Origin: Minisyncoccota bacterium
Lineage (GTDB): Bacteria > Patescibacteriota > Minisyncoccia > Phycocordibacterales > UBA6065
Assembly (NCBI GenBank): GCA_035438745.1
Contig: DAORIX010000002.1
Location: 1,830-65,829 of the forward strand
Reading direction: 5' to 3'
Length of the DNA stretch: 64,000 nt
Shown: positions 36,402 to 64,000 of the stretch, one piece after another
Numbering within the stretch: position 1 is the first letter of the stretch
How the letters are laid out: each line of letters opens with the position of its first letter
Notes under the pieces: generated by a model
Told to the model about the DNA's origin: nothing
Database searches by the model: none
Seen by the model: only the letters and a program-made list of their open reading frames with translations
Made by a program: the position numbers and the translations under genes

Positions 36402-36490
36402 AATTGGGTCTTTTATGTGAACATCTTCACACGTATCCCCTAACTACATAATCAGATGAATAAATACTAGCATTTGTTACACTACTAGAC

Positions 36491-39346: not shown

Positions 39347-39437
39347 CAACAATCAGAAGTGATTCGCAGGTGAGTCACCACTCACACTGCTAAAGTCGAG
39401 GCACGAAAGCTTCGGCTTTTGTTTTAGTTAGTTATTT

Positions 39438-39617: not shown

Positions 39618-39628
39618 TTACAATAATC

Positions 39629-40135
39629 ATGGCAAAAAAAAGAATAATTAACACTCGGTTCTGGGTAGATGAATACATATCAAGGCTCGATCCTATAGAA
39701 AAACTGCTATTTCTATATTTTTTAACAAATCCCTCTACAGAGATATGTGGAATATATGAAATACCCTTGAAAACTGTCGCCACCGATACCGGTATCGACA
39801 AAGATATGGTAGAAAAAATAATTAAAAGGTTTAGTAAAGATAATAAAATTTACTACAAGAAAGGTTGGATTGCGATAAAAAATTTTACGAAGCACCAAAC
39901 CCTAAATCCAAGCGTAAAGACAGGAATAGGAATATGTGTTTCTAAGGCCCCTAAATTCATGTTAAAGAAGGTCAATCTGCCCCCAGACTGTGTACACTCT
40001 CCAGGCAACATCACGCATGTTAATCCAAACCCAAATCCTAAAAATAAATCTAAAATGGACACAGACACCAAGCGTCATTTAATACTTAGAAAAGAAATTG
40101 ATGAAATAGTTAACCAAAAAAGAACAATTCCTTAA
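39629..40135 (+). CDS. Winged-helix DNA-binding protein, phage replisome-organizer/DnaD-N-terminal-like (tentative)
   Basis: 168 aa. The N-terminus (RFWVDEYISRLDPIEKLLFLYFLTNPSTEICGIYEIPLKTVATDTGIDKDMVEKIIKRF) resembles phage replication-initiation / DnaD-like winged-helix domains. Confidence 0.45.
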   Translation: MAKKRIINTRFWVDEYISRLDPIEKLLFLYFLTNPSTEICGIYEIPLKTVATDTGIDKDMVEKIIKRFSKDNKIYYKKGWIAIKNFTKHQTLNPSVKTGIGICVSKAPKFMLKKVNLPPDCVHSPGNITHVNPNPNPKNKSKMDTDTKRHLILRKEIDEIVNQKRTIP

Positions 40136-40156
40136 ATATTTGATAAAATTACATCA

Positions 40157-41761
40157 ATGAGAAATAAAGCTATTACTTATTGTAGAGTATCCTCTAAAGA
40201 ACAAGAAGAAACTGGTTATTCTCTTGATGCTCAAGAAAAACTATTAAAAGAGTATGCTGAAAAAAAAGAATGTGAGGTCACTAAGGTGTTTCGTATCTCT
40301 GAATCCGCAAGTGGAAAACAAATCAGGAAAACATTTAACGAAATGCTCGCTTACATGGAGAAAAACCACGTACCTGTTTTACTCTGTGAAAAAATAGATC
40401 GCCTTACCAGAAACCTAAAGGATGCCGCGACTGTCAGTGACTGGTTACAAGCTGATCCTATACGAGAAATTCACTTTGTTAAAGAAAACTTTGTAGTAAA
40501 CAAAAATACTCGTGCTCATGAAAATCTTGTTTGGGACATGAAGGTTGCCATTGCGCGCTTCTATACAAACAATCTATCAGAAGAGGTTAAAAAGGGGCAA
40601 GCAGAGAAAATTTCACAAGGCGGCCTCCCTACTAAACCACCTATTGGATACAAGACTATTGGAGAAAAAGGCCACAAGGTCCATGTTTTAGATCCGGACA
40701 AAGCACCTTTTGTAAAAAGAATGTTTGATCTTTACGCTACTGGGAACTACTCAATGACCAGCCTCAGAGAAGAGTTACATACGGAGGGTTTTCGAATGAG
40801 ATCCGGAAAAAAGGTTATGAAAAGTAAATTTGAGCAAATGCTTAAAGACCCTTTCTATTACGGTGCTTTGAGATGGAATGATGTCATATATCACAATGGA
40901 ACACATGAACCGATTATCTCAAAAGAAACGTTTGATAAAGTTCAAGATATAAGAACAAAGAAAAAAGCACCTAGTTACTCAAGACATTCTTTTCAGTTTA
41001 GAAAGATGTTCAAGTGTGGAGAATGTGGTGGAAGCGTCACCGCTGAAATACAAAAAAACATCGTCTATTACCATTGTAATCATTATCGACCTTGCTCTCA
41101 AAAGAAATACACTCCTGAGGAAAAGCTTGAAGAGAAATTATTTGGTGTATTCAAGTTTTTTGAAACCATTACAGTAGAAGAAGCAGAAGAAATAAAGGCC
41201 AAAATCAAGCTAAACCACTGCCAGGAAATCGAATATAAGGAAAACACCATTAAAGCCCTGAACGAACGGTATAACACGCTACAAAGACGGTTAGACAACC
41301 TTTATAACGACAAGCTCGATGAGAAAATCACACGCGAGTTCTGGGAAAAGAAGCAAGCTGAAATAACAAATGAGCAAAAAGCTATTCAGGACCAGCTTTC
41401 TCGCCTCAAAGGCGAAGAAGCGAAGTATTTTGAAATCTGGCTCAACATCCTAGATCTCGCTCGTCGAGCCGGCGAGATCTACAAGAAACGATCACCAGAG
41501 GAGAGGCGTTTACTTTTGAGTCATATTTTTTCGAACCTGGTCCTAAAAGACGAAACAGTGACTCCTACTCTCAAAGCTCCAGTCCAGAAACTTGCTGAAC
41601 GTGTCCAACAACGACTAGACGCCGAAAAGACTTTCGAACCAGATAAAAACGGCTCTATAAAAACACAAAAAGGTGCTCTCGCACCCCTTGTGTCCAACTA
41701 TGCTCCGGGAGAAGGGATCGAACCTTCGACCAATCGCTTACGCTTACCCTCTCATTACTGA
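40157..41761 (+). CDS. Large serine recombinase (resolvase catalytic domain, recombinase domain, zinc ribbon and coiled coil)
   Basis: 534 aa with N-terminal ITYCRVSSKEQEETGYSLDAQ (catalytic Ser). It has a recombinase domain, a zinc ribbon (CGECGGS ... YYHCNHYRPC) and a C-terminal coiled coil. The last ~20 codons overlap the tRNA-Asn 3' exon on the opposite strand. Confidence 0.85.
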   Translation: MRNKAITYCRVSSKEQEETGYSLDAQEKLLKEYAEKKECEVTKVFRISESASGKQIRKTFNEMLAYMEKNHVPVLLCEKIDRLTRNLKDAATVSDWLQADPIREIHFVKENFVVNKNTRAHENLVWDMKVAIARFYTNNLSEEVKKGQAEKISQGGLPTKPPIGYKTIGEKGHKVHVLDPDKAPFVKRMFDLYATGNYSMTSLREELHTEGFRMRSGKKVMKSKFEQMLKDPFYYGALRWNDVIYHNGTHEPIISKETFDKVQDIRTKKKAPSYSRHSFQFRKMFKCGECGGSVTAEIQKNIVYYHCNHYRPCSQKKYTPEEKLEEKLFGVFKFFETITVEEAEEIKAKIKLNHCQEIEYKENTIKALNERYNTLQRRLDNLYNDKLDEKITREFWEKKQAEITNEQKAIQDQLSRLKGEEAKYFEIWLNILDLARRAGEIYKKRSPEERRLLLSHIFSNLVLKDETVTPTLKAPVQKLAERVQQRLDAEKTFEPDKNGSIKTQKGALAPLVSNYAPGEGIEPSTNRLRLPSHY

Positions 41762-42319
41762 AAGGAGCGGACTATATCATTCTCGTGATCCACCTCTGGA
41801 CCTTACGAGACGAGGGGCTTCCCATCTGCCCCGTGGCAGACAGTACTCCTAAAAAGGATAGTCTCTACACCCTCCCTTCAACCTCACTCAAGATTTACTT
41901 TGAGTTTTCGTCAAAGGGCTCGGCTCGGGATTGCCCACACATGTGGGGTTCCCCGAATTCACCTCGTTTTCGACCAAGCTTTCACTTGGAAGCTGCATGA
42001 TGCCCGCACCAACCTCTCTGTGGCAATTCGCGCACAAAAGAATACATTTATCGAGCTCTGCTTTTACCTTATCCCATGAACGCGTATAACCCTTATCACC
42101 AATCCCGAATCCTTTTTCTTCTTTTTTGATATGGTGAAGTTCTAACGCGCCTTGATATTTATTGTATCCACAGATCTGACATTTGCCTCCTTTGTACTCA
42201 ATAGCCAAAGATTTGATTTTTTTGCGTCTTTTAGAAACCGCACGAATCAAAGCTTCGCGTCGATCGGCATATTTTCTTCTGTCTGGCATTACTTTAATAA
42301 TACCACCAGAAAATCGTTT
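41741..42319 (-). mobile_element. Group I intron (~579 nt) carrying an HNH homing-endonuclease ORF
   Basis: The 3' part of the intron contains the paired P7-type elements AGAGACUA ... GAUAUAGUCCGCUCC. These are close to the Tetrahymena CAGACUA ... AUAUAGUCGGACC core. The intron ends in G before the 3' exon and follows an exon U. Confidence 0.7.
41888..42289 (-). CDS. HNH homing endonuclease encoded within the group I intron
   Basis: 133 aa with HNH motifs CQICGYNKYQGALELHHI ... LLCANCHR. Confidence 0.8.
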   Translation of the reverse strand: MPDRRKYADRREALIRAVSKRRKKIKSLAIEYKGGKCQICGYNKYQGALELHHIKKEEKGFGIGDKGYTRSWDKVKAELDKCILLCANCHREVGAGIMQLPSESLVENEVNSGNPTCVGNPEPSPLTKTQSKS

Positions 42320-44250: not shown

Positions 44251-45009
44251 ATGTGTAAAACATACGACGGAGACCGAACCCAGCTACCTATACACAAAAA
44301 AGGACTGAATGCAGTACTCAACATCTACTCATCACGAGTAACCGAGGGAGTCCCCCTCCCCGAAAAAGTTGTTACTGAATGCTACGGAGCAATGACCGAC
44401 AAACTGCACGTACGTATTATGCATTTTGTCGCACTCATTGATCTCGTGTATCGATACTACAACGATGAGAAAGGACTATGGGGAATGGGACCAGAGCTCT
44501 TGTTCTCTGCCCATCTCCCTAACACCCTCACTCGTTTTCGCTCGAAAGAAATGACAGCACTGCACGACTCATGGTTGTCATTCCAACTCGCAGAAAGGAA
44601 TAGAAAGAAACTCGACAGCATACTCCGAACACACTGTGACTTAGCGCTTGTGTCCCTCTGCTGTTGCGGAAGCAAGGCCGTAGCCTTTGGCGATGCAAAA
44701 CACGCCTTAGAACTATCGGGAGATTTCAACTATGTCCGAACAACTGCCGACATGTATGGACAAGTCGACGAAACAACGGAGCTTGATGACATTCCGAACG
44801 AAGCAATGCCCGATCTACTACGTTCAGCATTCAAAAGAATCATCATCAACGCACACAAGATTGCTCACGCACAGAATGATTGTTTCTGTTGTTCAATCTC
44901 CCCTACGCTCAAAACCGCAGGTGTGATCGACTCAGAAATCAAGCGCGCACAACAAGTTCAGTTGTTCCTCCCAGAACTGTCAAAAACAAAAGAGACGGTA
45001 CTCGTATAA
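44251..45009 (+). CDS. Cys-rich hypothetical protein (GC-richer than its neighbours)
   Basis: 252 aa with CCCGSK and CFCCS clusters. No recognizable family. A strong terminator follows. Confidence 0.5.
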   Translation: MCKTYDGDRTQLPIHKKGLNAVLNIYSSRVTEGVPLPEKVVTECYGAMTDKLHVRIMHFVALIDLVYRYYNDEKGLWGMGPELLFSAHLPNTLTRFRSKEMTALHDSWLSFQLAERNRKKLDSILRTHCDLALVSLCCCGSKAVAFGDAKHALELSGDFNYVRTTADMYGQVDETTELDDIPNEAMPDLLRSAFKRIIINAHKIAHAQNDCFCCSISPTLKTAGVIDSEIKRAQQVQLFLPELSKTKETVLV

Positions 45010-45017
45010 GGAACACA

Positions 45018-45051
45018 GCTGTGAATGGACAAACACATTCACAGCTTTTTT
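45018..45051 (+). terminator. Rho-independent terminator
   Basis: 10-bp stem gctgtgaatg / cattcacagc with loop gacaaaca, followed by TTTTTT. Confidence 0.6.
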
Positions 45052-45070
45052 ATAAAAAAGAAAAAATACT

Positions 45071-45901
45071 ATGATAATAGGATTCTTAGGAAAAGGAGGA
45101 AGCGGAAAATCAACACTTTCCACTCATTTCACAAAATACTTAGCACAAAAAAAGTATATGGTACTTGCTATTGATGGTGACCACAACATGGATATGAGTT
45201 ATCTTTTGGGAAACAAAAACTCATCTACCCCATATCTAGGAAACGGCCTCGGTGACTTGCTCGAGTACAAAAACAAAAAATATGCACATTATAGTGATAT
45301 GCTTTTTGACGATGAAAGGCCTCAATTTTCGATACATCCAAAAGATGCTTTTACAAAGAAATATTCTGTAAAAATTTCACGAGGCATTGACCTTATGATA
45401 GGTGGACCCCACACAGACAATGTAAAATTTGGTCAGAGTTGTAGCCATGTACTAACTACACCTCTCAAGTCATACCTACCTTTGGTAAAATTTTCAAAAA
45501 AACAAGCAATCGTGCTCGATGAAAAAGCTGGCTCAGACGGTGCAGGAACAGGTATTGCGACGGGTTTAACCTTAGCGATTATTTGTGTTGAGCCCACACC
45601 ACAGAGCATAAAAGCAGCAAAACAAATTGCGGAACTGCTCACCTTTTTTGGCACACCATACGAATACATAGTAAATAAATACAAGAAAAATTCTCCTCTT
45701 AACGGCCTAGATAAAAAACCTCTCGCCTTGATCCCATTCTCAGAGCAAGCGACTTCAAAAAAGTTTACCGGTGCAAAAAAAGCGTTTAGTACTATCGAAA
45801 AAAGAGCACTTAATGAAGAGCAAAAAGATACCGAGGCTCGCTTCAAACGAAGTAAACAAAAATTTGAGAGAAACAAAAGCTTCAAAAATACAAATTCGTA
45901 A
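45071..45901 (+). CDS. MinD/ParA/CooC-family P-loop ATPase with a basic C-terminal tail
   Basis: 276 aa with a deviant Walker A (FLGKGGSGKST) and an LAIDGDHNMD motif that is MinD/CooC-like. Confidence 0.7.
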   Translation: MIIGFLGKGGSGKSTLSTHFTKYLAQKKYMVLAIDGDHNMDMSYLLGNKNSSTPYLGNGLGDLLEYKNKKYAHYSDMLFDDERPQFSIHPKDAFTKKYSVKISRGIDLMIGGPHTDNVKFGQSCSHVLTTPLKSYLPLVKFSKKQAIVLDEKAGSDGAGTGIATGLTLAIICVEPTPQSIKAAKQIAELLTFFGTPYEYIVNKYKKNSPLNGLDKKPLALIPFSEQATSKKFTGAKKAFSTIEKRALNEEQKDTEARFKRSKQKFERNKSFKNTNS

Positions 45902-49377: not shown

Positions 49378-51567
49378 CTACCTACCCAATCTATAGAGCT
49401 GTTTTGCTTCGTCGACAGAGAGCACTCTGTTATATACGCGAACTTCATCAATAGCTCCATCAAATGTTCGTGCAGTATCAGCACGATTACCTATAACCAA
49501 ATCGAGAGAAGCATCGGATCCGGCAGAATCAGTAGCGCCAGCAACAACAGTATGGTACGAAATTTCGACACCGTTCCTATAAATACGTGATCCTGAGTTG
49601 TTATAGCCGGTAGATCCATCCCATGTAACCATAAAATGTTGCCACTCGCCTATAGTAAAACTATTACTTGCACCGCAACGTCCCGCTCTCGCGGTAGCAG
49701 TAGAACCTACTTTTATAAAATATATAGCATTTGTAAGACTTGCTTCTCCAGCGAGACAACCAGCACCTGTAACTAAAGTAATCTGCCATTGGCCAGCAAC
49801 ACCAATATTTCCATTCTTTGCTACCACACGAGATTGATTACCCTCACCTGCAGAATTTGGTTTAATCCAAAAACTAACACTCATAGGAATGAGGTCGTCG
49901 AGAGAACTCGCTGAACCAGCATTCACAATATCGTCCACCGCATCAAAACGTAGTGCCTGACCTGATTTTCCTGGAACAGGAGATGTGGTGGTACTCATAC
50001 TTGTAATCACCGCGTTACTGTTACGACCAGAACGATCGTATGCGATATTATTCGCCCAACTGATGTCAGAACCATTAAATGACCAGTATCCCACGAGACC
50101 GTCAGTAAATCTATTTTGTTGTGATGAGTTAATAGCGGTCTGATTTTGATTGTAGAGTGCCTGTACTTCACTATCAGAAAGTGCCCTACTGTACACGCGC
50201 ACATCGTCTATTTTTCCAGGGAAAAATCGTCCTGGAGTACCACTGATATACGCTCCTCCAATAGCAGCATTGGCTGAAGAACTCTGTGCACCCACAGCTT
50301 TTACAGCACTTGCCACCAATACACCATCGACATATAACACCCAAGATGTCCCATTATAAAGTCCGACAACATGATGCCATGTGTTTATCGGAAAATTAAT
50401 ATTCCAAGAAGTACCGTAGTCGATCGAGGGACCGAAAGTCAGAACCTCCAACTTTGCGGGACTGCCACTATAGCGTAAAACGTATGCTTCTCGAGTACCA
50501 TCAAATCCCTTCTCCATAATTATACCGCAGTAGTTAGCGCAACCATTATTGTTCGATGGAAAAGAACTAAAATTGACCCACGCAGACAATGTTATTTGTC
50601 CCGTAATATTAAGCGCAGACGGATTACCGAGAGCGATAAAGTCATCTGTACCGTCAAAATCCAAAGCCTTGCCTTTCTTTCCTCCTACCCAATCAGTGTG
50701 TGGAGCCATGTTGGTGAGAGTTCCATGAAGGCTATTACCAGAAAAATCATGAGCGATAGTAGAAGTACCTTCGTCAAAAGACCAGTGTCCGACAAGTCCT
50801 CTGTTTGAAACAACCTTACGAGTCACCTGACCGTTTGAGTAGAGTGCCTGAATTTCATTGAGAGATAGAGCTCTGTTATAAATACGCACGTCGTCTATTT
50901 GAGCACTGACATACCCGTCATCACCAGTACCCACTCCAGCTCCGATAGCAACCGCTCCTCCGTTGTTCATACTTCCCATACTCGCACCCGACGTTGCAAC
51001 AAGAACTCCATCATAATAAAGGAGTGCATTAGAGCCGTTTGAAACACCGACAATGTGGACCCATTTGCCTGTTTGAGGAAAAGGTCCGATAGCCCACTGG
51101 TTTTCAGCACCTCCCTGCCTACCAAAACGCATACCAGTACCAACATGAGACCAAAAGGCATATGAGCCAGAAGCTTTCGACAAAAGATCGCCGTCATCCC
51201 ATACAGAATCTTTGACCCACATAGAAATAGTCACTGTGCTCGAAATGTTGAGCCGGCCTTGAGAATCAGTCACAGAAACATACTCATTTACACCATCAAA
51301 ATCGAGTGCCTTTCCCCTTTTACCGTTTATCCAGTCGGTTGCCTCCATGTTGTTGAGGTTTCCGTTTTGACCAAAACCAGAAAAATCATGAGCAATAGTC
51401 CCAGCACTTTCATCAAAAGACCAGTAACCCACAAGACCGAGGTTTGATGGCGGTTTAGAGAAAGTTCCAGCATGAAGAGGTAAAACCATCAACAAGTAAC
51501 TTGCCACAACAAAACCAAATACAAAGGTAAATCGAATTTTTTTGCTATGTAGTAGTGAGGAAAACAT
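49378..51567 (-). CDS. Secreted protein with three LamG/ConA-like lectin-fold repeats
   Basis: 729 aa with a signal peptide. It has three repeats of GLVGYWSFDE..GT.A.D.SG...G...NM....DW..GK.GKAL.FDG.DD.V........W.H.V......LY.DGV.......IDDVR.YNRALS..E...LY. Confidence 0.7.
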   Translation of the reverse strand: MFSSLLHSKKIRFTFVFGFVVASYLLMVLPLHAGTFSKPPSNLGLVGYWSFDESAGTIAHDFSGFGQNGNLNNMEATDWINGKRGKALDFDGVNEYVSVTDSQGRLNISSTVTISMWVKDSVWDDGDLLSKASGSYAFWSHVGTGMRFGRQGGAENQWAIGPFPQTGKWVHIVGVSNGSNALLYYDGVLVATSGASMGSMNNGGAVAIGAGVGTGDDGYVSAQIDDVRIYNRALSLNEIQALYSNGQVTRKVVSNRGLVGHWSFDEGTSTIAHDFSGNSLHGTLTNMAPHTDWVGGKKGKALDFDGTDDFIALGNPSALNITGQITLSAWVNFSSFPSNNNGCANYCGIIMEKGFDGTREAYVLRYSGSPAKLEVLTFGPSIDYGTSWNINFPINTWHHVVGLYNGTSWVLYVDGVLVASAVKAVGAQSSSANAAIGGAYISGTPGRFFPGKIDDVRVYSRALSDSEVQALYNQNQTAINSSQQNRFTDGLVGYWSFNGSDISWANNIAYDRSGRNSNAVITSMSTTTSPVPGKSGQALRFDAVDDIVNAGSASSLDDLIPMSVSFWIKPNSAGEGNQSRVVAKNGNIGVAGQWQITLVTGAGCLAGEASLTNAIYFIKVGSTATARAGRCGASNSFTIGEWQHFMVTWDGSTGYNNSGSRIYRNGVEISYHTVVAGATDSAGSDASLDLVIGNRADTARTFDGAIDEVRVYNRVLSVDEAKQLYRLGR

Positions 51568-51613: not shown

Positions 51614-53779
51614 TTATTTTCTACCCATTCCGTATAACTTTTTTACTTCATCGGCAGACAGTGCTCTATCATAGATACGAAACTCATCCATATTTCCATC
51701 AAAACGACCAGTTCCACTTTGATGACCACCGATTAAAGGACGTATTGGAGTCAAACTAAGACTACCAGAATCAACCACGGAGCTTTGGAAAACACCGTTC
51801 CTATAAATAGAAAAAGTACTATTATAATTGCGAACAAACGCAATATGGGTCCACTCATTAAGAACAATATCCCCAATCGTACAAACAGCCCCTAAGCCAG
51901 TACTATTTTCATAACGCTTTTGCAAACAATACTTATTCCCTATTGGTTTAAGCGATATAAGTGAGTTACTAGTAGTCATGCGATCAAAAAAATAAGTACC
52001 TGAACCATCGGTCGAGAGACCGTTCGTATAAGCACGAGGCTTTAACCACACACTGTATGTAAAACTACCATTAGAATTTATACTCGGATTAGCGTTCACC
52101 TCAACAGAATCATCAACACCGTCAAAACTCAGAGCTTGGCCTGATGCGCCCGCTACTGGTGATGATGAGTTACTCATATTAACAATGGAAGCATTATTTC
52201 CTCTCCCTGAGCGATCATACGCTACGTTTGTAGGCCAATGTATATCAGGAGCATTAAATGACCAGTAGCCGACAAGACCGCTCGTCAGTTGATCTTTTTG
52301 TGGAGCATTAATTAATGTTTTATTTTGTTGATATAGTGCTCTTACTTCAGACGAAGAAAGTGTTCTATTATAAATACGTACATCATCAATATTTCCATCA
52401 AAAGATCTAGTCCCAGCGAATGCATCACCTCCTATCCTGAAAGAACCGTTAAGTGTTTGATTGTTGTGCGTGATGACGTTTTCAGCACTACGACATGAAT
52501 CACCAGTACATAAATACGCTGTTGCTTTTGTTGGTTCAATCGCCACTGCAACCAAAGACCATGTATCCAATGGTATTGAAAGCCCACTCGACCATCCATA
52601 TGTTGCAACATTATTATCGTTCCAAGTATATGTTAAGTCATTTGTAGCGTCTCGATAGTGTATACCAACTGACTGTGGATCATTTCTTAAATACAATATA
52701 CCTGTATAGGCTCCTGTTCTTACCCCTTTAACCCACGCAACAAAGGTTACTGTATTTGAAGTAATCCCAGAAACAGGAAATGAAACATAATCATTCGTAC
52801 CATCAAAGTCTAAAGCTTTTCCCTTCTTGCCTGCTACCCAGTCGGTGTTTGCGTCCATGTTGGTCATATTTCCATTGCGACCATTCCCTGAAAAATCATG
52901 AGCGATGGTGGATGTGCCCTCGTCAAAAGTGAAATGTGCAAGAATGCCCCTGTCGGATACTCCAGTTCGAATCGTCTGTCCCACAGTAGCAAGCGCCTTG
53001 ATTTCATCTCGAGTCAACGCCCTGTTGTAAATACGCACATCATCAATGGAGCCCGCAGTGAATTCAGAAGTACCTTGATATGAACCGAAATACGCGCCCG
53101 TTGATCCTGAGAAGACCGGAAGGTTTACATTGGGTGTATCTTTTTGGTTTGTAACAGACCCATCAACGTACACTTTGAAACCATTAGTTGTATTCTTCTC
53201 CCACGTCATAGCAATATGCCGCCACTTACCATCATGTACGTTACCGCCACCAATATTCACACCTGTGACTCCTCCGTCTGTAGAAACGAGAGCACGTGGT
53301 GCAAATGCCCCACTACTTGTCCAACCTAAAACAATATAAGCAGTACCATCTTGTAAGCGCACCATAGACTCAATATCAGAACCCTTAAACCAACCGGCTA
53401 TTGTTATTGCAGTATTACCAGAAACACGACTAGAAAGATTGGCGCTTGGTAACGCAACATAATCATCGACTCCATCAAAATCAAGAGCCTTACCTCTCTT
53501 GCCCGCTACCCAGTCAGTAGATGCATCCATGTTGGTCATAACACCGTTGAATCCATTCCCTGAAAAATCACGAACAATCGTAGAGACACCCTCATCAAAA
53601 GACCAGTGACCAATGAGCCCGAAGTTTGAAGGAGGTTTTGAAAAGGTGGCAGCATGAACAGGCAAAACCATTAACGAGTAACCTGTCACGACAAAACCAA
53701 ACAAAAGGGCAATTCGGATATTTTTAATGTTAAACAAAAAAGACATTATGTTTTTATTATTTCCACTCCATAGTAGCAA
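51614..53779 (-). CDS. Secreted protein with three LamG/ConA-like repeats, a paralog of 49378..51567
   Basis: 721 aa with the same repeat architecture and the same N-terminal sequence pattern (VLPVHAATFSKPPSNFGLIGHWSFDEG). Confidence 0.7.
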   Translation of the reverse strand: MLLWSGNNKNIMSFLFNIKNIRIALLFGFVVTGYSLMVLPVHAATFSKPPSNFGLIGHWSFDEGVSTIVRDFSGNGFNGVMTNMDASTDWVAGKRGKALDFDGVDDYVALPSANLSSRVSGNTAITIAGWFKGSDIESMVRLQDGTAYIVLGWTSSGAFAPRALVSTDGGVTGVNIGGGNVHDGKWRHIAMTWEKNTTNGFKVYVDGSVTNQKDTPNVNLPVFSGSTGAYFGSYQGTSEFTAGSIDDVRIYNRALTRDEIKALATVGQTIRTGVSDRGILAHFTFDEGTSTIAHDFSGNGRNGNMTNMDANTDWVAGKKGKALDFDGTNDYVSFPVSGITSNTVTFVAWVKGVRTGAYTGILYLRNDPQSVGIHYRDATNDLTYTWNDNNVATYGWSSGLSIPLDTWSLVAVAIEPTKATAYLCTGDSCRSAENVITHNNQTLNGSFRIGGDAFAGTRSFDGNIDDVRIYNRTLSSSEVRALYQQNKTLINAPQKDQLTSGLVGYWSFNAPDIHWPTNVAYDRSGRGNNASIVNMSNSSSPVAGASGQALSFDGVDDSVEVNANPSINSNGSFTYSVWLKPRAYTNGLSTDGSGTYFFDRMTTSNSLISLKPIGNKYCLQKRYENSTGLGAVCTIGDIVLNEWTHIAFVRNYNSTFSIYRNGVFQSSVVDSGSLSLTPIRPLIGGHQSGTGRFDGNMDEFRIYDRALSADEVKKLYGMGRK

Positions 53780-54314
53780 GCGCTTTATCCAAACCCTCTA
53801 CTCCTTCACGGGTCGATGAAAATTGGTACGCATATCCATCTTTTACAAACCACACTTCAAAAGTATCCCCGAGCGACTCGTGTCGAGAGACAAAAGAGAG
53901 CGCTTTAATTCCGCTAGGTAACGATACTGTTTCTGGACTCTTCATAACAATATCTGGTATATCATTTTGAATTCGGTTTGGAGTAAGCTCAATATTCGGC
54001 TCATCAAAAGGGGTGACGAAAATCTGAAAACCTGCTAGAGAGTCCCCTCCTCTACTCACTACAATAGAATCTCCTATTTCTTCCTCAATAAGACTTGGCG
54101 CGTATCCTTCTGGATACTCAAAAGAAAAAACAGGATCTGAGTGGCTATACTTTGAACCTGTAGCGGTTTGTGTTTTCGGAGCGTCCCCCACTTCTGGAGT
54201 TTTTACAGCAGTAGTGTCAAAAACAATACTTCTGTCTATTTTGAAGAAGAAAAAGTAAACAACAAAACCAACGATGAGCAAAAAAAGTATAAGGATGATA
54301 TTTTTCTTATGCAT
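53757..54314 (-). CDS. Membrane-anchored extracellular hypothetical protein
   Basis: 185 aa with an N-terminal TM. It lies immediately downstream of the giant fibre-like gene. Confidence 0.5.
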   Translation of the reverse strand: MHKKNIILILFLLIVGFVVYFFFFKIDRSIVFDTTAVKTPEVGDAPKTQTATGSKYSHSDPVFSFEYPEGYAPSLIEEEIGDSIVVSRGGDSLAGFQIFVTPFDEPNIELTPNRIQNDIPDIVMKSPETVSLPSGIKALSFVSRHESLGDTFEVWFVKDGYAYQFSSTREGVEGLDKALATMEWK

Positions 54315-54336: not shown

Positions 54337-57300
54337 TTAAGGGGTTTCAGGTGCTGGTTCTGGAGCAGGTTCAGGATCTGGGGTTGGAGCTGGCTCTGGA
54401 TCAGGTGTTGACTCCGGTGTCGGTTCTGGATCAGGAGTAGGTGTTGGTTCAGGGGTCGGAGTAGGTTCAGGATCTGGGGTTGGAGCTGGCTCTGGATCAG
54501 GTGTTGACTCCGGTGTCGGTTCTGGATCAGGAGTAGGTGTTGGTTCAGGGGTCGGAGTAGGTTCAGGATCTGGGGTTGGAATTATTGGACTTGTTGTTGT
54601 CGCTCCACACTCTCCTGCCTCAGACTGCATCACACCGTTTGCGATAAACATACAAACAGATTCGCCTGTAATACGATCGGTCACCGTGATACCCGCAGTA
54701 CTCCTGTCATCAGGAACAATCTTGAGAGATTTCGCGGTAACAGCATTCGCCACAAGATTGTTTACCGTTATTGTTTCTGCGAATATGTCGGTAAAGCGCG
54801 CAATCGTATTTTCAAACACTACACCAATCTGAGTAAACCACTCTGAAACTATTGAAATAGTTGTCGATGCTGTTGTTGAAGCAGTAGTTGTTCCTGAGAG
54901 AGCCTCGAATGTCGATGTTGCAGTTGTTGAAGACATTATAGAAGCGAGGAGATTTGCTGTGGCGTCGAGGCGAGCTTCGAGTGTTGTTACGCGATCAGAC
55001 AAAGCATCGATTACACGAACCTGTTCCTGAACACCAGCGAGGATGTAGGTAGAAAGTTTATAAATATCTACACCCTTACCTCCAGGAGCGAGAACTTCGA
55101 GTGGAGCCTCTTCTGCAATGAGACCGAGGCGAAGAGGTTCTGAACCTGACTCAGTGTTGTAGTGATACGTTGCAACTCCAATATTTCGAATGGTATCCAA
55201 GACAGAAGCTTTCTCTTCTTGTGACAAGTACGTAATATCTTTCTTTGCATCTCGTGTTGAAACATTTACAAACGATGTCGCCGCAACATCACCATCTACA
55301 TAGAGTTTGTATGCTGCCGAAGTAGTACCGAATCCTGCATGACCATTCGCGTCAATCACAAAGACCTCGTCACCTTCATTGTCCTTGAGAATAAGTTTTT
55401 GAAGTACAGAAGGATTGAGATCGCCTTCAGTAAACGCAAAGCTGTTTGCGAACACCAAGTCGCCCGTATAGGTATTTCCTGTTGTACGGAGATTTCCCTT
55501 GACCCATAGGTTTGAAGAGTACGTTGATGTTGAGTTTGCGCCAGTACCCAAGACATCGAGATAACCAAAGATTGTTGATGTAGCGCTTGTTGATGTTGCG
55601 GTGAACTTTTCTGCAACAACAGCACCTGCAACTGACAACTTTGCATATGGAGATGATGTTCCAATACCTACAGCGGTATTTTTTATACCTCCCGCACCGT
55701 TTGATTCAGCGTACACAGTAAGAAGTGGATCGCCGTTGATAGCTGCGGTGTAGCTCTGCTTTGTACCATCTGCTGACGCTGACGTTACTGGCATATCTGT
55801 CCATGTCACAATACCTGCATCAGAATCAAATGTTGTGATACCCAACTGAAGGTTATCGATGTTCGTTACTCCTGATGAGAAGTCATAACGAAGAGATCCG
55901 TTACCCACATTGAATCCTCCAGCAAATGTTGAAGTAGCTGTTGTTGATGTTGCAGTGAACTTTTCTGCAACTACCTCACCTACAACTGACAACTTTGCGT
56001 ATGGAGATGTCGTACCGATACCAACGTTTCCGTTACCCGAAACGATGAAGAGTGTTGATGTCGCAAGGTTGGTTGATGATGTTGCAATGACAAAGAGAGG
56101 AGTAGCTACCGCTCCATTATGTGAACCAACAGAAAGCTTTGCGTATGGTGATGTGGTACCTACGCCAACTGTTCCAGCGACAAGTGTTCCAACAGAACTT
56201 CCTTTTGTACCGGCACCAACAAATAATTTGCCAGCCTCTCCTCGAGAAATACCTATATCTTTTGTTGACCACCACTGATCATTACCCCAACCAACAATTG
56301 CCTGATATCCCAAATTGACTCCTCGAGGATAGTTAGCGGACTCAGTACTACTATCAACGAGCATCGCTGTCTGATCATCTAGCGTACCCAAGTTAGAAGA
56401 ACCAATAAGACCATCCTCACGAATAAAGGCAACTTGTACTCCTGATGAGTTATTGATACGGAGGACAGGATTAGCAGTACCTCCTCCCACGTTACCTGCT
56501 GCTCCCTGAATAGTCACACGAGTATTTGTTGTACCTCTAAAGAAAGCAGTAGCCGCAGTAGCAGAACTCAACACTGAGAACGTATTAAACGGAGTTGTAG
56601 TTCCTACTCCCACATTTCCAAATCGATCAACAATAAACACTGTGCTTGTGGCAGTACCTGCTGTTGAAGATGCGATAACAAAGAAAGGAGAGACAGGATT
56701 TGTTGTAGTAGAAACAGAGAGTATTCCCCATGGAGACGTGGTACCGAGACCCATTCTGTATGCAGAGTTGGTGTAGATAGAGAGAGCATCTAGAGTAGAT
56801 GTTGCCCACTTTGAATTTGCACTACCTCCGCCTCCCGCACCGCCGTCATCATCAGAACAAACAACTTGTCCCAAAGCATTTGTAGTGAGGGCTCCACCGT
56901 TGGTGTTTCCTGTACAGTTAAGTCCTGTTATAACAAGGGCAGTGGTTGATGCAGTACCTGTGGCAGTGAGGTTACCTCCGATGTATGCATTGCCGGCTAC
57001 AGAAAGACGGGTGAATGGCGTAGATGTACCAATACCAATTCTGCCACCTTGCACAATCCTCATTGCTTCAGATTGCGCAGGAGAAAATGCAATAAAGTTT
57101 GCTGTTCCGCCTGTGTAATTAGTCGTAACGTTAAGATAATTGTCTCCGCTATTATTAAAGAGAAGCTGAGCGTTTTGACTCGTTGCACCACTGCCGAGCT
57201 GCAAGAGGCCGTTTGTAGAATAGATACCTGTGTCCACACCAAGTGATCCAGAAACACTAAGATTTCCTGTTGTTGTCGCACCACCAGAAATAGTGAGACC

Positions 57301-60300
57301 TCCGTTTTGAGCACCGTTTCCAATAGTTGATGAAGCTGAAACGAGTATGCCGAGTGTTGTTGTTGGAGCGAGATAACCGTTAGTGATCTCCCATGCTTTA
57401 CCGAATGTAAGTCCGCTACCACCTACTGATCCTGTGATACATGATCCGTTAATAGCGAAACATCCTCCAGTAAGATTGAATCCAACGTTTGAGGTTGATG
57501 TAGCAGAGCCTGAGATGTTGAGGCCTGAGAGTGTTGTGGTACCAAAGCCTGTAGCTGATACAGAGAGGAGCGTTGTTGAGGCGCTTGAAGTAACTTCAAA
57601 GGCACGACCCGTTGTTGTTGCCCATACAGAGAGACGAGCATATGGAGTGGTTGTTCCAATTCCTACTGCACTATTTTGTATACCTCCAACACCGTTTGAT
57701 TCTGCGTAAACAGTAAGGAGAGGATTTCCGTTAATTTCTGCAGTGTAGCTATGCTTTGTAGCGAGAGGAGATGCTGCGGTCACTGGCATATCTGTCCATG
57801 TCACGATACCTGAGTCTGTATCAAAGGTAGTGAGGCCGAGTTGGAGATTATCGATGCTTGTGACGTTTGATGAGAAATCATATCTCAAAGATCCATTACC
57901 AACATCGAGTCCTCCAGCAAAGGTTGATGTTGCTGTCGTTGATGTTGCGGTGAAATTACGCGCAACTACTTCACCGACAACTGAAAGTTTTGCGTATGGA
58001 GTTGTAGTACCGATACCAACGCTTCCATTAAAGTATGCATTGCCGGTAGTAGTTGAGTTTCCAGAAACAGTGAGACCTCCCTGTCCTGTACCATTTCCGA
58101 TTGTTGATGAAGCTGAAACGAGAACACCGAGAGTGGTTGTAGGTCGGAGTGAACCAGCAACTATAGACCAGTCACGGAATTGTGAAGCGTAATAATCTTG
58201 TGATGTTGTAGCCCATGATCCAGCAGCTGCTCCACAAGCAGAACCTGTACCTGATACCTGACCAAGAGAGTTCACTTGGAGACACTGAGTAGAGCCGGTT
58301 ATTGAAGTGATAGTGAGATTCGTTGTGGTTGCAGTGCCTGTAGCAAAGAGATTTGCGACAGTGAGATTACCTGAGAAGAGGCCGTTACCCTGTACTGAAA
58401 GTTTCGTTGCTGGGGTTGTTGTACCGATAGCCATATTTCCTGCAAAGTAACCATCTCCGTTGTCGAGGTCCACAAATGCAACGTTCGTGTTGTTTCCCAT
58501 CCACTGGAACTTATTCTCAGGATTATTCCAATACAAACCGTATGTATCGTAATTGGTAGATCCGATAAAGAAAGACATTACATATCGACTCGAGCTTGCA
58601 TCAAATCTCCAACGACCAGTTGAACTAATATCTCCTACAATTTCGAGAGCATCGCGAGGAGCCGGTGCGTTTATACCAACCCTTCCGTTATTAAGTACGG
58701 TGAAGAGTGTGGTTGTTGAGTTTGACGTAGATGACGCTATAGAGAAGAGAGATGTGTTGGTTTCTCCGTTGTATGCATGCACAGAAAGTTTTGAGACAGG
58801 AGTTGAGGTACCAATGCCAACATTTCCAGTTGATGATATTCTCATTCTTTCAGTATTGTTTGTACCGAAGAGAATACTGTTAGCGCTGTTGTTACCGATA
58901 AGCAAGTTTGTAGAAGAAATAAGAGATGAAACCGCAAAAGAGCTTACTCCCCACACTGAACCCGTAGCACCTGCTCCATACATTCTCAAAGTAAGGTTCG
59001 ATGCAGCTCCAAGACTCTGGAGAACAAGGTTCGCAGAACCGCTCGCACCGTTTGATGTCTCCTGAACTTCGATACCTGAATGTGCATTAGCAGTGCTCTT
59101 TATTTTCAAAAGCGCATTAGAAAGTGTTCCGCTGTATGTACCACCAATAGCCATTACACCTGTAGTAGTTGAGTTTCCAGAAACAGTGAGACCTCCCTGT
59201 CCTGTACCATTTCCGATTGTTGAAGAAGCTGAGACGAGGACACCGAGAGTGGTTGTAGGTCGGAGGTATCCGTTGAATATTGAGAAATCACGGAATTGTG
59301 AAGCGTAATAATCTTGTGAGGTTGTAGCCCATGATCCAGCAGCTGCTCCACAGGCAGAACCTGTGCCAGATACCTGACCGAGAGAGTTCACTTGGAGACA
59401 CTGAGTAGAGCCGGTGATTGAGGTGATAGCGAGGTTGGTGGTTGATGCGGTGCCTGTAGCGGTGAGGTTTCCTCCGATGTATGCAGAGCCGGCTACTGAG
59501 AGACGTGCGAATGGAGATGAGGTTGCGATACCGAAGTTACCAGCACTAGAGAACTTGAAGCGTTCCATGTAATTAGCACCTCCATCTAGATTGCCCCATG
59601 CCAATCCCTCATCCTGAGTGGTTGAAGCAAACCAGAAAACAGATGGAGTATCTTGATTTGAAATAAAGAATTGAGGTGACTGAGTTGAGTAGGCTATCAT
59701 ACCAAGCATAGAAGAAACTTCGCCAACAAAGACAGACTCACTATCTACAATTAAATTTGTAGTTCTCAACATATCGCCGAGAACAGTCAAAGATCCCGTC
59801 GTCGTAGCACCACCAGAAATAGTGAGGCCTCCCTGTCCTGTACCATTTCCAATTGTTGAAGAAGCTGAAATGAGCACACCGAGTGTTGTTGTCGGACGAA
59901 GTGAGCCTGCGACTATAGACCAATCACGGAATTGCGAGTTGTAGAAGTTAGCTGAAGTTGTAGCCCATGATGAAGATCCTGCTCCGCAGGCAGAACCTGT
60001 TCCTGATACCTGACCGAGAGAGTTGACTTGGAGACATTGAGTAGAGCCGGTGATTGAGGTGATAGCGAGGTTGGTGGTTGATGCGGTGCCTGTAGCAAAG
60101 AGATTTGCGACAGTGAGATTGCCTGAGAAGAGACCATTACCCTGGACTGAGAGTGTGGTAAATGGCGTTGAGGTGCCAATGCCTATACTGCCCGAATCTG
60201 TAATTCTTAGACGTTCTAATTTTGTGGTGCCACCACTGAGAGTGGTGTCAAAAGTGATGTATGTTCCTTGATTTGTTGTTGACCAACCCTCTGCTGTTTT

Positions 60301-63300
60301 GAAAGAAATACTTGCCTTAGAAGCACTTGTAAATGATTGCCCTGTATGGCCGCGACCTCCAAATACCATAAGGTCTTGATTCGCAGTAACAGCAGAAGGA
60401 GAATCAGATGTTCCTCCTGATCTTCGTCCGATTAAACCAACTCCAGTTGTATTGCTATACAAATCAAGCAACATTGCGCCTGATGATTGTGTAAACACGG
60501 TATGGAATCTTGACTCTGGGCTTGTTGTTCCCACACCCACATTTCCAAACTTGTCTACAATAAACACAGTGCTTGTGGCAGTGCCTGCTGTTGAGCTTGC
60601 GATAACAAAGAATGGTGTAGCAGGATTTGTGGTGGTAGCTATTGAGAGTTGTGCCCACGGAGTTGTAGTACCGAGACCGATAGTACCAGTGATAAAGGCT
60701 CCTGAAATGTCATTTGATGTTCCGCTTCCAAGAGAAAGCTTTCCATCTGAAAGTCGAGTAAGGACAGTATCAAAGTCATTAAGGAACGGCTGTCCTATAC
60801 TCAAAGCGCCATTTAGAGCAACCAACGTATCAGTTCCAGTCAATATAGGAGTGTTATCAGGTCTCTGTATAGAAATATTTCCTAGGCCAGGATTCGTTGA
60901 ACCATCCATCAACTTGAAACCAAAAGATCCAGACCCTGATGTAAATGCTGCATATGGTGCTCCAATATTAGGTGTAGAAAAAGCAGAGGCATATGCATTA
61001 CCTGTGGTCGTTGAGTTTCCAGAAATAGTGAGTCCTCCCTGTCCTGTACCGTTTCCAATTGTTGAAGACGCTGAAACGAGAATACCGAGAGTTGTTGTTG
61101 GACGGAGTGAGCCGGCGACTATAGACCAATCACGGAACTGTGAGTTGTAGAAGTTAGCTGACGTTGTTGAGAACGCTGAAAGAGACTGCTGTGTGAGCCA
61201 GTAGTTAGATGAGGTTGTTGAGAATGAGAGACCTTGTGAAGCGAAGTATGAAGCTGATGTGGTAGACCAACGAGAAAGTGTAGAGTCCCAGTATGCAGCT
61301 GAGGTTGTTGAGAAGAAGTTGTTAACTGACTTCCAGTAGTCAGATGATGTTGTTGACCATGCAAATGCAGAGGTGAGGTAGTCTGTACCTGCTACAGCTG
61401 GTACTACTTGGCCGAGAGCGTTTGTTTTGAGGAGAGTACCGAGTACGTTGGTGATGCTGAGGTTAGTTGTGGTTGCTGTACCTGTAGCGGTGAGGTTACC
61501 TCCGATGTATGCATCGCCGGCTACTGAGAGACGCTTGAATGGAGATGTTGTACCTACACCCACAAAACCAGAAACTGCAGATGCTCCGAGGATGGTGAGC
61601 TTTGCATCATTTGATGGGCCAATCTGAGTTGATGACGCTGTGCTGTTTGTAATTCCCCATCCAATTGCGCTCGCACCTACTGCAGAAACGGTATTTCCTA
61701 CACCGAGAGTGATTGAGTTTACTGTGTTGATACTGTTGTTTGAACCAATACCAATTGAGCGGCGTCCTGCAATGAGATTTGCTGTACCGATAGCGATTGA
61801 ATCCTGCTGATTTGCTTCTGCGGTATAACCAATAGCCACAGAGTTTACTCCAGCTGCAATAGAAGTATTACCGATAGCTGTTGCGCGTGACTGGCTTGCT
61901 GTGTTTTGGAAACCGATAGCGGTTGTCTCGGTAAACGACGCGATGTTTCCATAACCAACAGCAGTGATGAATGAGCTTGAAACATTGTTTCCGATACCGA
62001 GAGCGGTTGAGCTGTCTTGGCTGATGCTGTTACCCTGTCCAAAAGACATACCAAAGTTACCAGTGATGTTGTTGTTGATACCGACAGACACTGCGTTTGT
62101 TCCTCCTGCTGTGTTGAGGAGACCAAATGCAACTGACTGATTTCCGCTCGTCACTTGAGTGAGAGCTGAACGATATCCCTGAACGTCGATAGATCCAATT
62201 CCACGAGCATCTCCCGTTGTGTCTCCGATAGCAACAACACTATTTGCTGAACCGATATTGAGTCCTCCATATATAGACACTTTTGCTGTTGCCTCAGGTG
62301 TTGTGGTGCCTATAGCAACTCCGCCAGCTATATAAGCGTCACCCGTCGTTGTAGCACCACCAGAAATAGTGAGACCTCCATTTTGTGTTCCAGAGCCGAT
62401 GGTTGAAGAAGCTGAGACGAGAACACCAAGTGTTGTGGTTGGACGAAGTGTTCCAGATACAACGTTCCAATCTTTAAATGCTGATGAGATGTAGTCTGTA
62501 CCTGCTACAGCTGGTACTACCTGACCGATAGCGTTTGTTTTGAGGAGAGTGCTGAGTGCGCTTGTGATGCTGAGGTTAGTTGTGGTTGCTGTACCTGTAG
62601 CGAGAAGGTTTGCGAGAGTTACGTTGCCTGAGAAGAGACCATTGCCTTGTACTGAGAGTGTGGTTGCCGGAGTAGTTGTTCCCACACCAACACTGCCAGC
62701 AAAATATGACTTAGCTGTTGCGTTTGAATAGAGGGCGTAATTGTCAGCACCAGTAGCCGGTCCTTCTATCTGAATACCATAATTTGTAGTTCCGCCAGTA
62801 GAATACGCGTAGAGACCTGTATTTAAAGTAGCTCCTACTCCAGTAGCGAGGCCGACAACTCCATAATTGTTACCAGAAGTTGAGAGGCTCTCAGAGCGAA
62901 TCAGTCCTTGGCCTGAAGCTGAAGTTGAGCGCACATGTAGTTTTGACTCTGAACTTGGAGTAATGATTCCGACTCCTATGGTTCCCGCAAAATATGCATT
63001 ACCAGTCGTTGTCGCACCACCAGAAATGGTGAGTCCTCCATTTTGAGCACCGTTTCCAATAGTCGAAGAAGCAGAGATGAGAACACCAAGAGTCGTTGTT
63101 GGACGAAGAGTTCCTGCGACTATAGACCAATCACGGAACTGTGAGTTGTAGAAGTTTTGTGAAGTAGTCGAGAACGCAAGTCCCTGTGAAGCGAAGTATG
63201 AAGCTGAGGTTGTTGAGAAGAATTCACCGAGGAGAGCAGAAGTGATGAGACCGTTTGAATTAGTCTTGAGGAATGAAGATGCGAGTCCTGAGAGAACGAG

Positions 63301-64000
63301 GTTGGTTGTCGTTGCGTTTGTTGTTGTGCTGTTGGTGATTGTGAGTGAGCCGATGGTTGATGAAGCAGTGAGGATGAGTCCACGAGTTGTTGTAGGTGCG
63401 AGATATCCATTGCCTTGAACAGTGAGAGCGTTAAAGAGTGAAGCGTAGTAGTTTTGTGATGTTGTAGCCCAGCCAGTGAGTGTGAGAGAACCTCCGAGTG
63501 ATACTGATCCTCCACCGGTGATACCACCAGCGGTGTTCAAAGTAATAGATGAGTTTTGAAGTTGTGCGTTTCCAATAGTAGATGTAGCAACAACTCGTCC
63601 AGAAGCATTCACTGAAAGGAGTGATGATGTGATTCCTGTGATAGCGAGGTTGGTTGTGGTTGCGTTTGTGGTTGTACCGTTTGTGACAGAAAGATTGTTG
63701 ATTGTAGATGATGCGGTGACGAAGATTCCTCGAGTGGTTGTAGGAGCGAGAGCGCCGAATGAGTTGATAGACCAGTCACGGAATGATGATGAGAGGTAGT
63801 CTACTCCTTCTACTGCATTTGAGAGCACACCTGAAGTTGATTTAATGATGCCGTTTGAGAGAGCGGTGAGTGTGACTGTACCCGTAGCAGTGAGGTTACC
63901 TCCGATGTATGCATCTCCTGCGACTGAGAGGCGTGCGAATGGAGATGTGGTAGCGATACCAAGGTTGGCGGTTGATCCAGGAGCAGAGGTAAAATGCCCT
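54337..64000 (-). CDS. Giant tail-fibre-like surface protein (more than 3163 aa; N-terminus lies beyond the window end)
   Basis: Uninterrupted minus-strand ORF running to the window edge, with extremely Thr/Ser/Gly-rich beta-type repeats. A ~150-200-aa module recurs at least 6 times at near identity ([44 protein letters not shown] ... [38 protein letters not shown]). A C-terminal peptidase-S74 (endosialidase chaperone) domain lies at ~54960..55265 ([37 protein letters not shown] ... [12 protein letters not shown]). A P/T/E-rich tail follows. Confidence 0.85.
54366..54590. repeat. 96-nt tandem repeat (~2.3 copies) encoding the [32 protein letters not shown] tail
   Basis: Direct tandem duplication seen in the sequence (ggttcaggatctggggttggagctggctctggatcaggtgttgactccggtgtcggttctggatcaggagtaggtgttggttcaggggtcggagta, twice). 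Confidence 0.8.
57000..63900. repeat. Large near-identical intragenic direct repeats (0.6-1.2-kb modules, 5 or more copies) inside the giant gene
   Basis: Long identical stretches recur. For example, ...gactatagaccaatcacggaa(c/t)tg(c/t)ga ... gcagaacctgt(a/t)cctgatacctgacc(a/g)agagagtt(c/g)acttggagaca(c/t)tgagtagagccggt(t/g)attga(a/g)gtgatag... is seen at ~58150, ~59270 and ~59890, with partial copies at ~61090 and ~63110. This explains the many antisense ORFs in the track. Confidence 0.75.

Follow-up and report, generated by a model that had tools for sequence, protein, structure and literature searches.

Fibers that are encoded by the cell and carry a peptidase S74 chaperone are already known from Bdellovibrio, and an S74-type domain is known from the eukaryotic protein MyRF. 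Much of bacterial diversity belongs to the Patescibacteria (the candidate phyla radiation, CPR), most of which live attached to other cells, and to our knowledge the way in which they recognize and hold their hosts is largely unknown. The mosaic adhesive trimer (MAT) predator fibers of Bdellovibrio comprise S74 and non-S74 kinds; self-cleavage has been proven for one of them, Bd3182, and the fibers have a role in prey handling and recognition (Caulton et al. 2024, PMC10769870). For the CPR bacterium Vampirococcus lugosii, giant membrane proteins of up to 4,163 residues have been proposed to form a fibrous surface and to serve in host attachment (PMC8080830). Here we describe a giant gene in a 64,000-nucleotide stretch of contig DAORIX010000002.1 of a very small and host-dependent Minisyncoccota bacterium (the window), which probably encodes a membrane-anchored trimeric cell-surface fiber for host contact, built on the plan of the phage tail fibers and the Bdellovibrio MAT fibers.

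The gene (54337-63999, minus strand) is an uninterrupted frame of 3,220 sense codons that ends in a stop codon at 54337-54339 and is open at the window edge. The list of open reading frames (ORFs) gives the protein 3,163 residues, counted from the first GTG at 63828; because the 57 codons upstream of this GTG stay open and already hold the family capping-loop motif at residue 14, the protein continues past the window edge. It is longer than 3,220 residues, its N-terminus lies beyond the window, and the minimum of 3,163 residues given in a preliminary description, made from the sequence without database searches, was correct and conservative. That description had also quoted several peptide strings, all of which are present in the translation, and had noted Thr/Ser-rich repeats with paired cysteines and a Pro/Thr/Glu spacer at the end. 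The composition bears it out: threonine makes up 15.3%, glycine 12.8%, and serine 12.6% of the protein, the visible part has only 12 cysteines, which occur as six pairs, and the last 85 residues form a Pro/Thr/Glu/Asp tail. No membrane-helix-like segment was found in the visible part. The last 62 bases of the window had no exact match in genome contigs or metagenome contigs, a protein-based metagenome scan found relatives, none of which extends the gene toward its N-terminus, and an NCBIfam search with the giant protein gave no match.

The Pfam profile Peptidase_S74 (PF13884, gathering cut-off 22 bits) matched residues 2915-2965 with 23.5 bits when the whole protein was searched and with 27.4 bits when the last 320 residues were searched, and the core of the domain lies at 55105-55260 on the minus strand. 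Since the match begins at profile position 2 on Thr2915, Ser2914 (codon 55258-55260) stands at profile position 1, the nucleophile position. Ser2914 is the predicted nucleophile and cleavage site, with Lys2919 (codon 55243-55245) as its presumed partner five residues on, a spacing equal to that of the SDxxxK dyad cited for S74 domains (PMC10769870). Across the clade of the window protein, the Asp of this motif is replaced by Thr, and the motif reads STRDAK here. The Ser, the next Thr, the Lys, and an LGLIAEE block were invariant in an alignment of 18 sequences, namely the window protein and 17 relatives. The remainder of the chaperone (54928-55104, minus strand, residues 2966-3024) is supported by the structural model and the matches to 7dc3 and 3gw6; its parts are the conserved LGLIAEEAP region and an approximately 46-residue helix, which is expected to form a trimeric coiled coil.

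An AlphaFold monomer model of residues 2822-3138 (317 residues, built on 37 sequences) had a mean predicted local distance difference test (pLDDT) score of 69.7, with values of 85-93 over most of the chaperone and 72 in the first block past Ser2914, and placed the helix at model residues 158-203. A Foldseek search of solved structures returned the ICA domain of MyRF (7dc3) as the best match to the model, with probability 1.0 and a template modeling (TM) score of 0.51 normalized to the target; tips of Bdellovibrio fibers followed, and the endosialidase chaperone 3gw6 was far weaker (rank 18, probability 0.23). Among cultured phages, a translated search matched the tail fibers of Bacillus phages Slash and Staley with 31% identity over about 200 residues that span the cleavage site (E 6e-12). 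A phmmer search of the C-terminal 317 residues against the sequences of the Protein Data Bank (PDB) found nothing, and the matches there came only by profile and fold search. The S74 assignment made in the preliminary description is confirmed by sequence, motif, and fold: the profile scores above its gathering threshold, and the structure prediction of the C-terminal region has a chaperone of this type as its best solved match. Accordingly, the protein is predicted to cleave itself at Ser2914.

The same description had the S74 domain terminate the gene, which needs correction: the domain is near the end, but Ser2914 is followed by 306 residues, and about 195 of these come after the coiled coil of the chaperone. 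These last residues form a post-chaperone extension (54595-54927, minus strand, residues 3025-3135), in which a Ser/Thr linker comes first, then a short helix and strands, then a small beta domain that contains Cys3116 and Cys3131, followed by the Pro/Thr/Glu/Asp-rich tail (54340-54594, minus strand, residues 3136-3220), in which two 96-nucleotide units are 99% identical. The small beta domain was modeled with a pLDDT of 84-86, and relatives share its pattern GITxxDxxTGxPYC...GxC.

The body of the protein points to the same kind of fiber. A motif scan found 18 capping-loop motifs of the form GxGTTxPxxKLSV across the whole visible length; 17 of them start at residues 14, 342, 438, 562, 814, 1108, 1273, 1490, 1728, 1857, 1995, 2113, 2322, 2417, 2612, 2660, and 2778, and the last one (55297-55335, minus strand, residues 2889-2901) stands directly before the cleavage site. 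The capping loop, for which a consensus has been given, marks the edges of each trimeric beta-helix segment, and the motif has also been noted in MyRF (PMC10769870). A profile of the C-terminal region matched the Bdellovibrio bacteriovorus fibers Bd2133 (8ond, E 1e-8), Bd3182 (8ojn), Bd2439 (8ol4), and Bd1334 (8oml), which belong to the PDB set of MAT fiber structures (8ojn, 8onb, 8onc, 8ond, 8ol4, and 8oml), and the alignment to all four runs through the capping-loop motif. Tail-fiber family 9942 of the PHROG database also matched the protein (E 4.5e-9). The trimeric beta-helical fiber proposed in the preliminary description is backed by this alignment to solved trimeric fibers and by the Bacillus phage matches.

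Between the capping loops the protein is a mosaic. YadA-head-like beta-roll repeats lie at 61555-62229 (minus strand, residues 591-815 approximately, with the best stretch at residues 715-739); the Pfam profile YadA_head (cut-off 25 bits) matched four stretches with 33.3 bits when the segment was scanned alone and gave 23.5 bits on the whole protein. The paired-cysteine region (58234-60036, minus strand) holds three copies of a cysteine pair (Cys1322/1338, Cys1534/1550, and Cys1906/1922), whose DNA copies are 76-88% identical and each of which is followed by ...RPTTTLG...SSTIGNG...GGLTISG. This sequence is part of a module of about 60 residues, FRDWSI...RPTTTLG...SSTIGNG...GGLTISG, which occurs in nine copies between the loops, three of them with the paired-cysteine motif in front. 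Several segments of 100-300 residues between the loops have no assigned family. Internal DNA repeats are 67-89% identical, except for the two 96-nucleotide tail units. Judged from these sequence features, the data support a long, segmented, trimeric beta-helical fiber.

By sequence, the window gene is no one-off: it belongs to a Patescibacteria family of very large size, here defined as the HTH-TM-fiber-S74 family. A tblastn search with the C-terminal module gave 158 confirmed stretches in a collection of species-representative genomes, of which the best 80 were kept as loci, and these best 80 were all from Patescibacteria. A word-indexed search returned 36 Patescibacteria proteins, many of which carry a precomputed PF13884 annotation and at least one of which bears the source name 'tail fiber domain-containing protein', and 3,544 clusters at E<=1e-30 were found among 1.84 billion representatives. 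Alignments show that the window protein has the complete family C-terminal module, which consists of the capping loop, the ST-motif, the coiled coil, and the two-Cys pattern. The S74-bearing ORFs of the genome loci range from 380 to more than 3,800 residues, the upper end being limited by the 10-kilobase (kb) flank, and the metagenome loci include complete fiber genes of 3,621 (on JACCDR011610896.1), 4,428, and 4,735 residues. Among the top 143 new representatives, 65 have at least 2,500 residues, and the longest has 7,920; representatives of 7,214-7,920 residues hold the S74 module at the end. Two metagenome loci, L012 (Ga0210043_1000069) and L016 (Ga0255338_1000610), have frames open across their whole length of about 21 kb, with at least 6,971-6,992 residues and 48-50 capping loops. 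The fragment after the cleavage Ser has 235-585 residues in most genome loci (full range 87-980) and a median of 358 in 82 metagenome representatives, and many relatives have Ig-like DUF5011 domains in place of the Pro/Thr tail.

Complete giant relatives also indicate how such a protein may start. They begin with one or two HTH_17-like, excisionase-type helix-turn-helix (HTH) domains, a linker of about 100 residues, and a single strongly hydrophobic helix. This start was seen at the loci L013, L018, L019, L011, L029, L031, L079, and L102 and in 9 of 10 giant representatives. The HTH_17 score reached 61.6 bits and exceeded the cut-off of 27 bits in three of the eight N-termini that were scanned together and also, at 27.3 bits, in L018. 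A few relatives begin with a plain signal peptide, and short relatives have signal peptides. At a further locus in another Patescibacteria genome, L104 (JBBTUR010000004.1), two fiber genes are separated by a gap of about 3 kb with PIN/DUF433 and PDDEXK genes. One (994-7080, P0012) encodes a 2,028-residue fiber with HTH and transmembrane helix and the canonical S74 motif SDSRLKN, and it ends in the N-terminal half of an intein (CVTGDTRL...TTANHP); the other (10001-11527, P0018, 508 residues) has the C-terminal half of an intein (PF14890, 52 bits; ...FAHN|T) fused to capping loops, S74, and extension. Judged by sequence, the two genes may carry the halves of a split intein, which would attach a different tip to the shaft; otherwise an insertion may have disrupted a single intein.

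The closest characterized system is the S74 subgroup of the Bdellovibrio MAT fibers, exemplified by Bd3182. Like these, the window protein is encoded by a cell, has the same capping-loop motif, a C-terminal S74 domain with Ser-x4-Lys, and mosaic domains, and the window organism, like Bdellovibrio, lives by attaching to other cells. Unlike the MAT fibers, which have about 1,000 residues and come from a deltaproteobacterium-like predator, it exceeds 3,220 residues in a family that reaches 7,920, and it belongs to Patescibacteria. Its relatives start with HTH_17 and a membrane helix, whereas MAT fibers start with a signal peptide and a conserved domain that is rich in beta structure and has about 130 residues; further differences from the MAT fibers and Bd3182 are the approximately 195 residues past the chaperone, the motif STRDAK in place of SDxxxK, and the linked genes for LamG-triplet and PsbP-like proteins. 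Whether the window protein belongs to the MAT family proper is doubtful, and we describe it as one that would work like a MAT fiber and do not file it there, because the N-terminal MAT domain would lie beyond the window and the relatives start differently.

Other systems share parts of the architecture. The tail fibers and tailspikes of phages (K1F endosialidase, 3GW6; T5 pb1, 4UW8; Bacillus phages Slash and Staley) have the S74 domain and a preceding triple-beta-helix with a capping loop, but the window gene differs from them in its chromosomal, non-prophage context, in being several times longer, in a chaperone that is not terminal, and in relatives that are membrane-anchored. MyRF (7dc3) is similar in having a non-viral S74-type domain with further sequence after it, and as a membrane protein it has a DNA-binding domain. 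It differs in being eukaryotic; its DNA-binding domain and its ICA domain share one side of the membrane, and cleavage therefore frees the factor. In the family described here, a membrane helix separates the HTH domain, seen in relatives only, from the S74 domain, which would lie at the distal end of a giant fiber outside the cell. The YadA trimeric autotransporters resemble the protein in the segment that scores above the Pfam cut-off for the YadA head and in what would be a long adhesive fiber. No Pfam match to the YadA-type C-terminal anchor beta-barrel was found in the whole protein or its segments; the missing barrel rules out a trimeric autotransporter, and the S74 chaperone would drive trimerization instead. 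The giant Vampirococcus proteins, by contrast, have WD40, PKD, DUF11, integrin, and fibronectin domains, and no S74 or tail-fiber architecture was reported for them (PMC8080830).

Between strains as close as these, comparison showed a conserved tip and a shaft that varies by gain, loss, and exchange of modules. The proteins that flank the gene in a sister strain (L003) are 94-99% identical to those of the window. The sister-strain fiber is 93-100% identical over residues 2355-3220 and 90-97% over residues 1500-1890, it lacks a module block of 460 residues (about residues 1895-2354; 56938-58317, minus strand; global alignment), and N-terminal of residue 1500 it is a mosaic with other module content. 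A BLAST value of 75% identity between the strains is misleading, since by global alignment the distal 870 residues are nearly identical, one block of 460 residues differs, and the proximal half is a mosaic. Within the cluster, divergence is greatest in the first LamG gene (51614-53779 compared with 4118-6208 of L003), whose product is only 58% identical between strains. A same-strain JGI contig starts inside the fiber gene and is 99.9% identical over 2,938 residues; according to global alignment its sole length difference is a tail with one 96-nucleotide unit (32 residues) fewer, which may be real copy-number variation or an assembly difference, and the copy number given here is provisional. 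Five independent assemblies other than that of the window extend to the gene (L001, which is the same-strain JGI locus, L003, L004, L005, and L006); every one of them contains the adjacent 185-residue gene and ends inside the fiber gene or right at it. The gene is a systematic contig breaker in short-read metagenomes, and part of the strain variation could be an assembly effect, as other assemblies end inside the gene. Two further strain differences lie elsewhere in the window: a ParA/CbiA-like gene and a neighboring gene of 252 residues (44251-45901) are called in L001 and are not among the called genes of L003, and a 666-residue DUF4430/terpene-cyclase-like gene appears broken in L003.

The genes next to the fiber gene form a same-strand cluster. 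The preliminary description had placed the gene adjacent to two LamG-repeat genes, and these neighbors are real, but a 185-residue gene (p185; 53757-54314, minus strand) lies between, 22 nucleotides downstream of the giant gene. Its product consists of a membrane helix at the N-terminus and, outside the cytoplasm, a PsbP/LpqN-like domain, for which the model (pLDDT 73) matched PsbP structures 1v2b and 4rth at probability 1.0. The first LamG-triplet gene (51614-53746, minus strand) encodes 710 residues from its likely ATG at 53746, a length that the JGI gene call also gives, with three Laminin_G_3 domains (Pfam, 237 bits) and a hydrophobic, signal-like N-terminal segment. The second (49378-51567, minus strand) encodes a secreted protein of 729 residues with three LamG domains (Pfam, 242.5 bits) and is the last of the cluster, as the gene beyond it is convergent. 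A candidate annotation of the LamG proteins as 'TafC fimbrial protein' was rejected, with scores of 97-135 bits against a cut-off of 410; they share only the LamG domain with haloarchaeal Tat-fimbriae. When the cluster was scanned for promoters and terminators, it did no better than sequence that had been shuffled. Parts of the cluster recur in relatives: L019, the most similar complete relative, carries its fiber gene on an 84-kb contig between the genes for BipA and LamG, in a cassette of fiber, a 169-residue p185 homologue (35% identity, E 7e-23), and LamG triplet, and at L013 a LamG-triplet gene follows the fiber gene. LamG-triplet genes were found downstream at 21 of the 80 genome loci, at several of them immediately after the fiber gene, and a p185 homologue at 12 of the 80.

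The wider window is chromosomal, as had been noted from the letters, and its genes and those downstream agree on this: among them are genes for penicillin-binding proteins, RsmH, lysyl-tRNA synthetase, two MreB proteins, a class II tRNA synthetase, a site-2-type protease (Peptidase_M50), PriA, and Fmt, and the proteins are deposited under 'Candidatus Paceibacterota bacterium' (HRH224xx). An island at about 36000-42300 has a low G+C content (34-36%, compared with 41-44% around it) and is probably a mobile element that has integrated there; its genes are one for DUF3800, several without a family, one for a large serine recombinase (40157-41761), and one of the HNH type (41888-42289). A second giant gene (27174-35873, minus strand, 2,899 residues) has an SpvB/TcaC N-terminal domain and FG-GAP, RHS-repeat, and LamG domains and is followed by a DUF695 gene (26738-27172, minus strand); it looks like an RHS-type polymorphic toxin with the DUF695 gene as a possible immunity gene. 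At 15104-16639 (plus strand), a MurA/EPSP-synthase-family protein has an N-terminal Cro/C1-type HTH_3 domain, which is an unusual fusion.

Several other explanations were weighed against a host-contact fiber. That the protein is a general envelope element (a fibrous coat, a spacer, or a cell-cell cohesion fiber) with no specific host recognition appears unlikely to us. There is a precedent in the giant membrane proteins proposed to form the fibrous surface of Vampirococcus (PMC8080830), the Thr/Ser/Gly-rich composition and the Pro/Thr tail recall wall-associated spacers, and a distal tip that is nearly identical between strains while length and mid-section modules vary would fit such an element. 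On the other hand, the MAT fibers of Bdellovibrio, which are the closest characterized cellular relatives, act in prey recognition, ligand binding is suggested by the YadA-head-like segment and by the linked lectin-like genes with LamG domains, and the S74 tips of phages and Bdellovibrio expose binding clefts once cleaved (PMC10769870). An improbable alternative is a contact-sensing device, in which the fiber would be the extracellular sensor of a membrane-tethered HTH_17 factor: on contact with a host or loss of the fiber, proteolysis within the membrane would set the HTH domain free. In favor are the HTH_17-like domains and single membrane helix at the start of nearly all complete relatives, a loose analogy with MyRF, the best structural match of the chaperone, whose S74-type domain controls a DNA-binding domain, and the Peptidase_M50 gene of site-2-protease type in the window. 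Against it, M50 proteases have housekeeping roles, half of the HTH_17 scores are marginal, DNA binding by the HTH domain is putative, and the N-terminus of the window gene itself is beyond the window. Moreover, HTH and S74 would be on opposite sides of the membrane, so that S74 cleavage cannot free the HTH domain as it does in MyRF.

Two explanations do away with a cellular giant fiber altogether. The gene could be a true phage tail fiber, that is, a prophage or phage-derived particle gene in a Paceibacterota chromosome; S74 domains and beta-helices with capping loops are typical of phage fibers, PHROG tail-fiber families and the Bacillus phages gave matches, the serine recombinase, the HNH gene, and the low-GC island lie 12-18 kb off, and the DNA upstream of the gene is unseen. 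We rate this as very improbable because unrelated genes separate the island from the fiber gene and because the ten downstream genes hold no virion module: searched against the PHROGs, these ten gave no virion-module match except similarity at the level of LamG, and they are non-viral or share only LamG domains with phage proteins. The same chromosomal neighborhood is kept in sister strains, the L019 gene sits between BipA and LamG genes, the N-terminal HTH and membrane helix of complete relatives are unlike virion fibers, lengths of 3,000-7,900 residues are far beyond those known for tail fibers, and a search of 2.9 million IMG/VR contigs with the C-terminal profile found no relative. An assembly artifact, in which misjoined or expanded repeats make a much shorter gene look long, would account for the way in which the five other assemblies stop inside the gene, for the 96-nucleotide tail unit by which two same-strain assemblies differ, and for the 460-residue block that differs between strains. 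We give it next to no credence. A collapse of the body is unlikely because the internal DNA repeats, at 67-89% identity, are too divergent for easy collapse or misjoining; the independent JGI contig agrees over its length except for the 32-residue tail unit, and complete relatives of 3,100-4,735 residues on contigs of 84-281 kb, together with representatives of up to 7,920 residues, show genes of this size to be usual in the family.

Certain observations weigh against the host-contact fiber itself. The S74 score is only a few bits over the cut-off, the dyad motif is STRDAK and not the usual SDxxxK, and the monomer model is poor over its first 43 residues (pLDDT below 50) and of no more than moderate quality before the cleavage site. 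The trimer and its cleavage are inferences from sequence and a monomer model, and the anchor, which would lie with the N-terminus beyond the window, is predicted from relatives. The stretch of about 195 residues past the chaperone is absent from classical phage fibers, and the released C-terminal fragment may have a role outside this account. In the two compared strains, the tip beside the site of cleavage keeps 98-100% identity, which is not what rapid switching of host range at the tip predicts, and the role as a host adhesin stays an inference.

We nevertheless favor the membrane-anchored trimeric fiber for host contact, which would be made and used as follows. An N-terminal anchor, proposed from the HTH_17 domain, linker, and helix of complete relatives, would insert the protein in the membrane, and more than 2,900 extracellular residues would be exported. 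The C-terminal S74 chaperone would then register three chains at the far end and nucleate the intertwined triple-beta-helix segments, which are marked by the 18 capping loops and interspersed with the YadA-head-like roll and with small Cys-paired and globular modules. The chaperone would cut itself off at Ser2914 with the help of Lys2919 and expose the tip (approximately residues 2790-2913), shedding a 307-residue fragment made up of the coiled coil, the small disulfide domain, and the Pro/Thr tail. If the model of about 550 Å for the 922-residue Bd3182 scales linearly, the mature fiber would be about 0.2 micrometer long. It would contact and recognize the host surface, and its partners there would probably be the PsbP-like protein anchored in the membrane and the pair of secreted, lectin-like LamG-triplet proteins.

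Our search of open-access papers and preprints on CPR taxa with S74, tail fiber, or endosialidase found no description of such proteins, and what was not found there includes the Patescibacteria family itself, the giant sizes, the start with HTH and membrane helix, the post-chaperone module, the cassette with LamG and PsbP-like genes, and the gain and loss of modules between strains. A broader and quite unlikely possibility is that Patescibacteria turned the phage tail-fiber plan into giant fibers of 3,000 to nearly 8,000 residues with a cytoplasmic HTH domain tethered by one helix, for which host contact would mean both attachment and a signal to the genome, and that some lineages may join alternative S74 tips by split inteins.

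For the biology of the CPR, the gene and its family are a concrete candidate for host attachment, namely a receptor-binding fiber of the phage type that is encoded by the cell, and the only characterized parallel is the prey-recognition fibers of Bdellovibrio. The features of these fibers could guide the prediction of hosts, cryo-tomography, and biochemical work.

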